Shown here: piece after piece, positions 9,433-9,903 of the stretch
Layout: each line of letters opens with the position of its first letter
Position numbering within the stretch: position 1 is the first letter of the stretch
IMG/VR virus record: IMGVR_UViG_2703718837_000007
DNA: 14,864 nucleotides
Source of the DNA: a virus
Lineage: Duplodnaviria; Heunggongvirae; Uroviricota; Caudoviricetes
Strand: one strand, 5' to 3'
Notes under the pieces: generated by a model
Database searches by the model: none
What the model saw: only the letters and a program-made list of their open reading frames with translations
Told to the model about the DNA's origin: nothing
Made by a program: the position numbers and the translations under genes

Positions 9433-9521
9433 CTTTGCAAACACCAGGAACGTGCAAAAACCAAATATGTAGAACGCAATATTCAGCATATCTCTGTGCA
9501 TAAATCCTCCGTAACGGATGG

Positions 9522-9782
9522 TTATCTGCTGTCTTTTTTATATAGCTTCTTGAGCGTATCAAAGACAATTTTCTTAACCATATCAGATTGTTGTTCTGCC
9601 ATACGCTCTGCATCGTCAATGTAAACTGATGCAGAGCTTTGTTTATCCAATGATTCCTCAATCGCTGCAATTATCTCTGAGTTCAGCGACCTGTTATTCA
9701 TCTTCGCACGCTGCTTAATTTTCGCGTGGAGTTCATGCGGAAGTCTCAAGTGAAACTGCGCCTCGTCGTATTTGCTGTACAT
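9522..9782 (-). CDS. mnt: Mnt-like ribbon-helix-helix repressor (Arc/Mnt family), 86 aa
   Basis: ...AQFHLRLPHELHAKIKQRAKMNNRSLNSEIIAAIEESL...DDAERMAEQQSDMVKKIVFDTLKKLYKK aligns with recalled P22 Mnt (...FNFRMPMEVREKLKFRAEANGRSMNSELLQIV...NDAERLADEQSELVKKMVFDTLKDLYKK). Start chosen at ATG 9782..9780; the track ORF starts 11 codons upstream at 9815. Confidence 0.8.
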   Translation of the reverse strand: MYSKYDEAQFHLRLPHELHAKIKQRAKMNNRSLNSEIIAAIEESLDKQSSASVYIDDAERMAEQQSDMVKKIVFDTLKKLYKKDSR

Positions 9783-9903
9783 CCTTGATGCCTCACCAGT
9801 TGGGTGGAATGGCATCGTAACCTACTGGATAAATACTCAATAGTACCATTTCGGTATGCAATCACATCATGGTTGCATCATATCATTCGTCTGGAGCAAT
9901 GAA
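9783..9903. promoter_or_regulatory. Divergent intergenic region between mnt-like gene and tailspike; candidate promoter/operator
   Basis: 121-bp spacer containing ATGCAA-N11-TTGCAT (9856..9878) and ATCAT direct repeats; GGAG 10 nt before the tailspike ATG. No match to the recalled P22 Omnt sequence. Confidence 0.25.

Follow-up and report, generated by a model that had tools for sequence, protein, structure and literature searches.

Mnt and Arc, two repressors of the immI region of phage P22, are textbook models of beta-sheet DNA recognition, and an Mnt-like gene at a locus without arc and the antirepressor gene ant raises the question of what such a repressor does when no antirepressor is left to control. 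The locus lies in a window of 14,864 nucleotides, the whole stretch of viral DNA that was analysed (IMG/VR record IMGVR_UViG_2703718837_000007, Caudoviricetes). A preliminary description of this DNA had placed a lone Mnt-like gene, without arc, ant or sieA and divergent from the tailspike gene, in the gap that follows gene 16, and had offered three possibilities for it, namely regulation of tailspike expression, repression of the ant gene of a superinfecting phage, or a relic.

The gap comprises 471 bp (9433-9903), from the stop codon of the gene for the gene-16-like protein to the start of the tailspike gene, and the single convincing gene within it codes on the minus strand for a protein of the Mnt family. 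[quoted passage not shown] Its parts are the following.

7039-9432, plus strand: gene for the gene-16-like ejection protein (797 aa, N-terminal lytic transglycosylase domain, Pfam SLT 2.8e-25), the left edge of the gap.
9433-9521, no strand: 89-bp spacer between the convergent stops of mnt and gene 16, without a gene, with a weak hairpin TCCGTAACGGA at about 9509-9519.
9522-9782, minus strand: mnt-like gene (86 aa, N-terminal ribbon-helix-helix and C-terminal Mnt tetramerisation helix).
9904-12027, plus strand: tailspike gene (Pfam Head_binding 4e-67 and Beta_helix), divergent from mnt.

The gene-16 side is collinear with positions 28572-34269 of phage IME10 at 96.6% identity, while the tailspike ATG at 9904 is preceded by the Shine-Dalgarno sequence GGAG (9893-9896). 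Folding of the spacer gave -8.4 kcal/mol (z = -1.3) and -7.9 kcal/mol (z = -2.3), and a terminator scan of the window returned nothing there. O26-type relatives carry a 161-aa gene in the equivalent of this spacer, which has no match in Pfam and no similarity to SieA.

Searches with P22 Arc, Ant and SieA by tblastn gave no match in the window apart from mnt itself as an Arc-like sequence, PHROG scans of the left-hand window ORFs did not find an antirepressor, the arc-ant segment which encodes sar according to the P22 annotation is without counterpart in the window and orf59a, unlike in P22, is absent at this locus. ORFs, Pfam and tblastn together bear out the lone gene and its divergent orientation as first described. 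An ant/arc pair located outside of the window would have contradicted the orphan status; the same tblastn searches were also negative for phage IME10 (97% identical), the genome of which is complete. The prophage in the window is a deletion remnant without immC, Q, lysis and head genes, with a junction that was found in none of the complete E. coli genomes, so that its Mnt module can act only on itself or in trans.

With the Mnt family defined as the Arc-like domain PF03869 combined with PF11423 (Repressor_Mnt), the protein, with MYSKYDEAQFHLRL at its N-terminus, is a member by both domains. Residues 8-50 match Pfam Arc (7.7e-15), the ribbon-helix-helix, and residues 58-83 match Repressor_Mnt (8.9e-15), by sequence the C-terminal coiled-coil tetramerisation helix; matches to the structures 1MNT (7.6e-19, residues 6-78 aligned) and 1QEY, the Mnt tetramerisation domain (4.4e-08), agree. 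Amino acid identity is 48% to P22 Mnt, 96.5% to Sf101 gp14 and 100% to IME10, and the RefSeq coding sequence WP_001543869.1 has identical coordinates. The 97-aa ORF that begins with the ATG at 9815 probably extends too far, since the RefSeq entry has 86 aa and every homologue aligns from MYSKY.

P22 Mnt contacts its bases by the beta-strand residues His6, Asn8 and Arg10. The alignment to P22 Mnt and Arc, which the preliminary description had proposed, confirmed the family and, with 1MNT as reference, placed Gln9, His11 and Arg13 at these positions, such that two of the three contact residues differ and the arginine alone is kept. The changes, H6Q and N8H in P22 numbering, argue for an altered specificity and not for a lost function, because the predicted operator changes in parallel.

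Two other functions of ribbon-helix-helix proteins were considered and rejected. A type II toxin-antitoxin module lacks the toxin partner, with only the ORF-free 89 bp up to the gene-16 stop, and the weak Pfam matches to HicB and FitA reflect the common ribbon-helix-helix fold. For a partition function, the 86 aa consist of ribbon-helix-helix and coiled coil only, and there is no ATPase domain, partner gene or repeat array; the widespread name 'partition protein ATPase', which such genes bear in PHROG 795 and in phage records of RefSeq, is wrong, an annotation artefact.

Four elements on the DNA between the start regions of the two divergent genes were delineated.

9787-9816, no strand: conserved inverted repeat GATGCC-TCACC-AGTTG-GGTGG-AAT-GGCATC, from repeat search, fold and covariation.
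9814-9840, minus strand: predicted mnt promoter, homologue of P22 Pmnt (-35 TTGAGT at 9840-9835, 15-nt spacer, -10 TACGAT at 9819-9814).
9843-9857, no strand: predicted Mnt operator GTACCATTTCGGTAT with its centre at 9850; the equivalent of the 21-bp P22 Omnt is 9840-9860.
9856-9878, plus strand: hairpin of the tailspike 5' leader, the inverted repeat of the preliminary description (9-nt arms 9856-9864 and 9870-9878, 89% complementarity).

The canonical P22 operator was not found in the window even when three mismatches were allowed, as had been stated before; the search for Omnt-like motifs nevertheless revealed a variant palindrome at 9843-9857 that the first reading had overlooked. Behind an invariant CAAT, its half-sites, GTACCA-TTT-CGGTAT, align exactly in register with the Omnt annotated in P22. 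The predicted site adjoins the -35 hexamer of the leftward mnt promoter in the geometry of P22, with 10 bp between the edge of the -35 and the centre of the operator in both phages, and lies 54 bp upstream of the tailspike start codon, which follows its right end after 46 bp; a palindrome beside the gene's own promoter, as predicted from sequence, is thus retained from immI. Further operators were not found beyond chance; the window and the IME10 genome each have a single exact match.

Among 84 loci with an mnt gene of the QFHLRL type (type A), collected by protein homology and not by the operator, 77 carry the predicted operator upstream of mnt, against a background of one site per 457 kb, and relatives of this locus bear perfect 6+3+6 palindromes. 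Across three Mnt types the predicted operator was shown to co-vary with the recognition residues: an HFNFR strand pairs with GGTCCACGGTGGACC, QFNLR with AGACCACnGTGGTCT and QFHLR with RTACCR-N3-YGGTAY. At the Citrobacter locus L017, a mutated half-site coincides with an in-frame stop in mnt. Four related loci have a G-to-T exchange in the GG of the right half-site beside an intact mnt, so that the constraint on the operator is not absolute. The palindrome at 9843-9857 is likely a previously undescribed binding site that matches this Mnt.

The predicted mnt promoter aligns with the annotated P22 Pmnt. Its hexamers are kept in relatives while the spacers diverge (TTGTTG-17-TACGAT, TTGTTG-17-TATCAT, TTGTGG-17-TATGAT); the window type has a spacer 2 bp shorter (15 bp, suboptimal) and a matrix score (PWM) of 6.7, below the shuffle median. 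The conserved repeat at 9787-9816 overlaps the mnt Shine-Dalgarno sequence (GAGG, 9794-9791) and the -10/start region of Pmnt. It folds on the plus strand with -14.9 kcal/mol (z = -2.4), and over 14 lineages 91.6% of the cells are paired and five pairs show compensatory changes, a result reached by none of 500 shuffles.

The inverted repeat ATGCAA-N11-TTGCAT in the intergenic region, noted in the preliminary description, was recovered by repeat search. Considered as an operator it was rejected, as its fold is no better than that of shuffled sequence (z = -1.0) and it has a counterpart in tailspike leaders with and without mnt. An equivalent leader hairpin, of other sequence and with compensatory changes, is located upstream of the tailspike genes of 12 phages, and Sf6 and BTP1, both without mnt, also bear one.

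The orphan gene is maintained. Against the deeply diverged orphans JEP4, VSe13 and those of Serratia, dN/dS of the N-terminal domain is 0.05-0.08 (about 0.06) with saturated dS; pN/pS within the mnt-only clade is 0.23, and of the 103 mnt-only loci retrieved, 98 have an intact ORF. These substitution patterns show mnt to be under strong purifying selection. Of 5426 complete E. coli genomes, about 416 (approximately 8%) carry the gene, and the type-A lineage, diverged to synonymous saturation over five genera, is always orphan. While the orphan layout is common and known from the literature, the operator specificity is new; our verdict, on sequence grounds, is that of an apparently intact, functional and ordinary member of the known mnt-only group with a new specificity. 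As purifying selection, the retention of Pmnt and operator, the loss of Pant and the presence in about 8% of E. coli genomes indicate, the orphan Mnt seems to do something, but not its P22 job.

Which job this would be is more difficult to decide. The comparisons show, at the level of sequence, the protein family, the position and co-variation of the predicted operator, the retained Pmnt, the lost Pant and the purifying selection. The reading that we favour, although it has somewhat less than an even chance of being correct, is a self-contained repressor-operator pair, expressed by the prophage and combining self-regulation with the hindrance of RNA polymerases at the gene-16/tailspike junction; it is favoured because the phage has neither a rightward promoter nor a second operator. 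Of the P22 immI switch, the locus would represent the left side (Pmnt-Omnt-mnt) after loss of the right side (Pant, arc, sar, ant) and of sieA. The protein would tetramerise via its P22-like C-terminal helix, insert the beta-strand with Gln9, His11 and Arg13 into the two half-sites of the palindrome and regulate its own synthesis, in either direction. P22 Mnt bound at such a geometry reportedly does not repress Pmnt. By elimination, the tightly bound tetramer may in addition hinder polymerases that cross the junction, on late transcripts reading through into the tailspike gene as well as on leftward ones that enter mnt from the tailspike side, and would impose an equal block in trans on incoming genomes with the identical site. 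An influence of Mnt and Arc on late transcription into the tailspike gene has been suggested for epsilon34 (PMC2629481), and BTP1 lysogens show strong leftward transcription over the gene-16/tailspike junction (PMC7067206). Sf6 and BTP1, P22-like phages without mnt, express their tailspike normally, so that the module is dispensable. Antiterminated late transcription may pass a bound repressor, which counts against a roadblock.

A wider proposal, which we regard as speculative and rather improbable as a whole, is that the orphan Mnt-operator pair is a selected autonomous device gating the transcription of the junction in resident and incoming genomes, including a leftward mnt transcript similar to STnc6030 of BTP1 and late read-through, and that this control of late superinfection or tailspike dosage has diversified into several operator specificities.

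Alternatively, Mnt might have been kept after loss of the antirepressor for immunity in trans, shutting down the Pant of superinfecting relatives which share the operator and shielding the resident repressor from foreign Ant. P22 Mnt acts in this way on incoming P22 genomes (PMC11016777), several operator specificities are what immunity systems would have, and purifying selection without a target in cis fits. In addition, complete immI regions that possess a strong Pant together with arc and ant (L272, L325, L336) contain an identical copy of AGACCACGGTGGTCT, the core of the sister operator of the phage L type (QFNLR). For type A, on the other hand, no such target was encountered. A general pattern search of IMG/VR gave at least 120 stretches; among the matches listed, about 100 were mnt-associated type-A sites, all orphan and located in the gap between mnt and tailspike, and the remaining 20 were chance matches in unrelated coding DNA. 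Type-A operators combined with an arc-like start gave 47 matches, none with mnt, arc or ant, and those behind a TTGACA -35 hexamer at Pant spacing gave two chance matches in IMG/VR and 40 matches in 241 million JGI metagenome records, again none with mnt, arc or ant. The repression of a superinfecting phage's ant gene, as initially suggested, therefore finds no target of this specificity in IMG/VR or the JGI metagenomes, and a lineage that has remained orphan throughout five genera likewise speaks against this role, which we consider unlikely.

[quoted passage not shown] In BTP1 lysogens, a 786-nt antisense RNA spans exactly this junction and excludes superinfecting BTP1 (PMC7067206); no convincing terminator follows mnt in the window, and upstream of the operator there is a candidate leftward promoter that resembles the consensus, CTGACA-17-AATGAT (9910-9882). 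This second leftward promoter was rejected, as its score of 9.6 is not significant (shuffle 95th percentile 12.2) and it is not kept in the 88%-identical locus L013. Conservation of the BTP1 promoter region in the window is poor, the annotation of phage L places terminators directly after mnt, and selection at the amino acid level points to the protein itself as what is needed.

Tailspike regulation in its simple form, the first role suggested for this gene, would require that Mnt represses a promoter which derives from Pant and has come to drive the tailspike gene, so that no tailspike would be expressed in the lysogen. This region is a homologue of P22 Pant/Omnt, and a deletion of arc and ant would have joined it to the tailspike leader. 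Pant transcripts in P22 can reportedly reach gene 9, which would fit. A possible role of such transcripts has been alluded to for epsilon34 (PMC2629481). A consensus scan of the window, in contrast, found no rightward sigma-70 promoter between mnt and the tailspike gene: the Pant -35 hexamer TTGACA has become ATGGCA, no -10 hexamer has A2 and T6 together, and the strong rightward Pant overlapped by Omnt, as in immI, is missing. The best rightward matrix score does not exceed 8.0 among 41 orphan haplotypes of type A, the value of the window, or 7.1 among 20 of the L type, in all cases below the shuffle median, versus 12.3-16.0 in complete immI regions, in which arc follows (P22 Pant 16.0). None of these 61 unique orphan haplotypes retains Pant, which is present wherever arc and ant are. 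The suggestion is thus not supported, only an effect of the roadblock type would be possible, and we rate a Pant-derived tailspike promoter as highly improbable.

A decaying immI relic without present function, a possibility weighed by the authors of the phage L genome (PMC8022706) and in line with the loss of arc, ant, sar, Pant and sieA, a prophage that is itself a deletion remnant and a few relatives with stop codons or operator mutations, is largely refuted by the selection data (a DNA-binding domain with dN/dS of about 0.06 at saturated synonymous divergence, with the pN/pS and intact ORFs of the mnt-only clade), by operator, promoter hexamers and Shine-Dalgarno sequence that are kept while the flanks diverge, and by the frequency among E. 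coli genomes, and has the slightest chance of all.

Among known systems, P22 Arc shares the ribbon-helix-helix fold and the reading of DNA by a beta-strand (match to PDB 1ARQ), but lacks the C-terminal tetramerisation helix, is 34% identical, and its gene is absent from the window. STnc6030 of BTP1 is likewise a prophage-made leftward transcript over the gene-16/tailspike junction and confers superinfection exclusion in BTP1 (PMC7067206); it is, in contrast, non-coding, the BTP1 gap has only 155 bp and no mnt, and no conservation of its promoter region is recognisable here. What is in essence the same gene, in an equal layout and at 96-100% amino acid identity, is found in Sf101 (gp14), in an unannotated ORF of IME10 and in WP_001543869 and WP_000287055 ('Arc family DNA-binding protein'), homologues which had not been analysed before and which run under the partition label in RefSeq phage records and PHROG 795.

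The P22 immI region itself (sieA-mnt-Pmnt/Pant-arc-sar-ant) has in common with this locus the two-domain Mnt with a very similar C-terminal half, the slot between genes 16 and 9, the leftward orientation and the homologous position of Pmnt and operator. It differs by H6Q and N8H, by the operator (GTACCATTTCGGTAT here, AGGTCCACGGTGGACCT in P22) and by the presence of Pant, arc, sar, ant, sieA and orf59a. Also close are the mnt-only 'ant morons' described earlier for ST64T/ST104/Para1 and phage L, the function of which was left open (PMC2629481; PMC8022706). The Salmonella phages ST64T, ST104 and L, and also Gally, equally have an orphan mnt divergent from the tailspike gene, have lost Pant and have kept Pmnt and a palindromic operator; they differ by a QFNLR strand, the operator AAGACCACnGTGGTCTT, an extra small gene, orf62, beyond mnt, and the existence of antirepressor-bearing partners for their operator type. 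Compared with His/Asn/Arg and GGTCCAC-N-GTGGACC of P22, the Gln/His/Arg protein with its predicted operator RTACCR-N3-YGGTAY would be a natural specificity variant, which, together with the L type (Gln/Asn/Arg and AGACCAC), would form a small, directly testable natural recognition code and sharpens the question of the mnt-only morons raised by the genome papers of epsilon34 (2008) and phage L (2020).

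The gap between the gene-16-like gene and the tailspike gene of the window contains one gene only, which encodes an Mnt-like repressor:

7039-9432: gene-16-like gene, ejection protein of 797 aa with an N-terminal SLT transglycosylase domain (Pfam)
9433-9903: gap between the gene-16-like gene and the tailspike gene, 471 bp
9522-9782, minus strand: mnt-like gene, 86 aa (MYSKYDEAQFHLRLPHELHAKIKQRAKMNNRSLNSEII...), sole gene within the gap
9904-12027: tailspike gene, Shine-Dalgarno sequence GGAG at 9893-9896, Pfam Head_binding 4e-67

The gene product matches the Pfam families Arc (7.7e-15) and Repressor_Mnt (8.9e-15) as well as the structures of the P22 Mnt N-terminal domain (1MNT, 7.6e-19) and the Mnt tetramerisation domain (1QEY, 4.4e-08). 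Alignment with P22 Mnt (48% overall identity) confirms a ribbon-helix-helix homologue with a diverged DNA-binding half and a very similar C-terminal half. A start of mnt at a 97-aa open reading frame from 9815 is unlikely, as the RefSeq start gives the 86-aa form, at which all homologues align. By tblastn, P22 Arc, Ant and SieA match nothing in the window, nor anything in the complete genome of phage IME10, which is 97% identical; this confirms the lone Mnt-like gene of the preliminary description, with no P22-type arc or ant to accompany it.

The same gene and layout are found in coliphage IME10, where the gene is unannotated and its product identical to that of the window, and in Shigella phage Sf101 as gp14, labelled 'partition protein ATPase'. 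This label, attached to Mnt repressors including P22 mnt in RefSeq phage records (NC_027398 gp14, NC_002371 mnt) and in PHROG 795, is a propagated annotation error. The gene-16 counterpart of Sf101 is a 911-aa version annotated 'lytic tail fiber protein'. Among 5426 complete E. coli genomes, 416 carry the gene, 159 of them over 80% or more of the 471-bp query and in the full mnt-only layout. The remaining matches have another left junction, such as O26:H11 11368 with a 161-aa gene adjoining mnt. This gene, directly 3' of mnt on the same strand (3413-3898 in locus L009, 3091-3576 in L010; O26:H11 and other E. coli), occupies a slot that is empty in the window; its product, with no Pfam match and no likeness to P22 SieA, may be co-transcribed cargo. 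A different wiring of the slot is seen in CUS-3 (L102, 2711-3240), where a tandem mnt-like pair, one with a PQVNLRL strand and the other P22-like, is divergent from a small ribbon-helix-helix gene, a small cysteine-rich open reading frame and ant.

Compared with IME10, the window prophage is a remnant left by deletion: minus-strand genes of the early-left 'ea' type extend to ~2780, 197 bp of the nin region follow (3267-3463), and from 3482 the 3' end of gene 10 leads into the order 26-14-7-20-16-mnt-9-gtrCBA, with immC, replication, Q, lysis, terminase, portal and coat genes missing. None of the complete E. coli genomes examined has the remnant junction. In the window host, control of a lytic programme by the mnt module is not possible, even though its protein is the same as in the functional phage IME10. 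A 506-aa open reading frame (12065-13585, minus strand, no Pfam match) upstream of the GtrB-like (13585-14505, Glycos_transf_2) and GtrA-like genes is presumably the serotype-specific GtrC. In E. coli EC26 (L008; NZ_CP196718, 245.9-257.4 kb), the prophage at the argW tRNA is heavily decayed, with many truncated pseudogenes, and still retains mnt, the tailspike gene, an acyltransferase gene and intS, its mnt region being 100% identical to window 9433-9903.

The canonical P22 Mnt operator is absent from the window, as had been noted for the intergenic region. An alignment (A3) of the mnt-proximal intergenic DNA of the window, P22, L, Gally, JEP4 and VSe13 with Escherichia sp., Buttiauxella and Serratia prophages and IMG/VR contigs places another palindrome exactly at the annotated P22 Mnt operator position, just after an invariant CAAT:

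9843-9857, centre 9850: predicted Mnt operator, GTACCATTTCGGTAT, in the P22 operator register by alignment A3

It is the single such site in the window and in IME10. Recognition strand and operator palindrome co-vary across three Mnt types.

Recognition strand, operator palindrome and occurrence of the Mnt types
HFNFR: AGGTCCACGGTGGACCT; P22, epsilon34, Pluralibacter, Pectobacterium
QFNLR (L-type): AAGACCACnGTGGTCTT; L, Gally, ST64T-like phages
QFHLR (type A): RTACCR-N3-YGGTAY; window and relatives

Perfect 6+3+6 palindromes are GTACCATTTTGGTAC (Buttiauxella L015, L143, L106) and ATACCATTTTGGTAT (L025). Base contacts of Mnt are, reportedly according to Knight and Sauer, made by His6, Asn8 and Arg10, which in the 1MNT alignment become Gln9, His11 and Arg13 of the window protein; the kept Arg pairs with the invariant CC/GG and the changed residues with the variable outer bases. 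Among 84 loci gathered by protein homology, with no DNA pattern used, 77 have RTACC-N5-GGTAY at most 130 nt upstream of mnt, against a background in the same loci of one match per 457 kb. The exceptions are a truncated locus with the upstream sequence missing (L060), four loci with intact mnt in which one G of the right half-site GG has become T (L058, L097 and L100 at window 9853, L099 at 9854), a degenerate right half-site (L021) and Citrobacter L017 with a mutated left half-site and an in-frame stop in mnt. Backed by co-variation, GTACCATTTCGGTAT is a specific predicted operator and would represent a new DNA specificity.

The inverted repeat ATGCAA-N11-TTGCAT pointed out in the preliminary description is present, but is not the Mnt site:

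9856-9878: inverted repeat, arms ATGCAATCA/TGGTTGCAT, 9-bp hairpin in the rightward RNA

Its fold is not better than that of shuffled sequences. A hairpin of other sequence occupies the equivalent site 5' of the tailspike Shine-Dalgarno sequence in 12 compared phages, with compensatory changes in three of seven consensus pairs; close relative L013, for example, has ATTCAAT...ATTGAAT. Located ~20-45 nt 5' of the tailspike start across P22-like phages including P22 (L004), whatever lies upstream, the hairpin is also present in mnt-less Sf6 (L002) and BTP1 (L271). The repeat, which falls within the 'boundary sequence' of the CUS-3 record, is a tailspike-leader element with mRNA stability, processing or a recombination boundary as candidate roles. 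Homing-type endonuclease genes (HNH_3+AP2) of at least three sequences are inserted after tailspike codon 5 (equivalent to window 9918) in L014, L025, L041, L046, L096 and about eight more loci, in mnt orientation and followed by a fresh tailspike start, with the operator and the old tailspike ribosome-binding site kept.

In the P22 record, Pant and Pmnt are annotated as overlapping divergent promoters. They score 16.0 and 13.8, respectively (shuffle 95th percentile ~11.7), in a simple position-weight model with manually set frequencies, of which only relative values count.

Best rightward promoter score (relative values) in 66 unique promoter-operator segments
Segments followed by arc: 12.3-16.0, TTGACA -35 in all
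Type-A orphans, 41 haplotypes (184 fetched loci): at most 8.0
L-type orphans, 20 haplotypes (45 loci): at most 7.1

None of the orphan scores exceeds the shuffle median. Pant and arc-ant are thus present together or lost together in every segment. The leftward Pmnt is kept at the homologous position with conserved hexamers and diverged spacers (TTGTTG-17-TACGAT, TTGTTG-17-TATCAT, TTGTGG-17-TATGAT and TTGAGG-17-TAAGAT in relatives):

9840-9814, leftward: predicted window-type Pmnt, TTGAGT-15-TACGAT

The window-type promoter is predicted to be weak because a 2-bp deletion shortened the spacer; the operator centre is 10 bp past its -35 edge, as in P22. By these promoter predictions, Pant is systematically lost in orphans and Pmnt and the operator are retained. 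Another inverted repeat (9787-9816, GATGCC..CACC..GGTG..GGCATC) overlaps the mnt Shine-Dalgarno sequence and the Pmnt -10/start region; in 14 lineages including P22 it has 91.6% of cells paired and five compensatory pairs, with G-U pairs favouring plus-strand RNA.

As the only site adjoins mnt's own promoter and self-regulation alone cannot be selected, some output is needed. In P22, Mnt bound at the same geometry reportedly does not repress Pmnt. The bound Mnt tetramer could regulate mnt, with either sign, and at the same time form a barrier against polymerases that traverse the junction from either side, in cis as well as on incoming genomes sharing the site; we give this combined reading a little less than an even chance. 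The epsilon34 authors raised the possibility that late transcription running on into the tailspike gene is influenced by Mnt and Arc (PMC2629481), and in BTP1 lysogens the junction is heavily transcribed leftward to give the exclusion RNA STnc6030 (PMC7067206); by analogy, both point toward a barrier. Against it, mnt-less phages do well and four natural loci carry operator-weakening changes.

Repression of the ant gene of a superinfecting phage, proposed in the preliminary description, would provide immunity in trans against antirepressor-bearing relatives and appears unlikely, although likelier than the other alternatives below. The left-hand open reading frames of the window encode early-left 'ea'-type proteins and the tail needle, with no antirepressor among them. 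The general type-A operator pattern matched at least 120 IMG/VR stretches; among the matches listed, all mnt-adjoining sites are in the mnt-tailspike gap, some with an HNH endonuclease insert, and the other 20 are chance matches within unrelated coding DNA. A search for type-A sites with an arc-like start behind them gave 47 matches. With TTGACA in front at Pant spacing, there were two matches in IMG/VR and 40 among 241 million metagenome records. No match of either kind contained mnt, arc or ant. No target of the window type was thus found in these searches. The L-type operator core was found 44 times in orphan context and in three complete immI regions from IMG/VR (L272, L325, L336) with a PQFNLRM Mnt, TTGACA-17-CATTAT, arc and ant, whose core AGACCACGGTGGTCT is identical to the orphan-Mnt core of the phage L/ST64T type. 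Orphan L-type Mnt could therefore repress the antirepressor promoter of such phages, which makes immunity in trans plausible for L-type orphans.

That the mnt transcript acts as an antisense RNA is improbable, and a cryptic Mnt-controlled tailspike promoter slightly more so: the low rightward scores of the orphan haplotypes and a consensus scan of 9300-10100, which found no rightward promoter, do not support the suggested regulation of the tailspike through a promoter. In the comparison with JEP4, VSe13 and a Serratia prophage, dS either reaches 1.7 or more or is not computable, so synonymous changes are saturated, yet N-terminal domain dN is ~0.12 and dN/dS 0.06-0.07 where computable; closer relatives give 0.05-0.08 for this domain. 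In the mnt-only left junction loci (103 fetched, 56 haplotypes, some contigs represented twice), pN/pS is 0.23 and the 86-aa reading frame is intact in 98, with a premature stop in three and the start-codon motif not located in two. As judged from these substitution patterns, window-type mnt is under purifying selection, and the suggested relic is untenable and the least probable of these explanations. The remaining probability falls to something else, such as host targets.

The lone mnt gene of the window is real and was rightly described, and is an instance of a phenomenon already in the literature. The slot is known as a hyper-variable 'ant moron', with ST64T, ST104 and Para1 carrying mnt and one unknown gene only (PMC2629481), and phage L keeps a poorly conserved mnt with sieA, arc and ant missing, which 'could have acquired another function or be a remnant' (PMC8022706), so that the orphan state as such is not new. 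To these known cases the present analysis adds the operator prediction, the systematic loss of Pant with Pmnt and operator kept, the evidence for selection and the reassignment of the inverted repeat.
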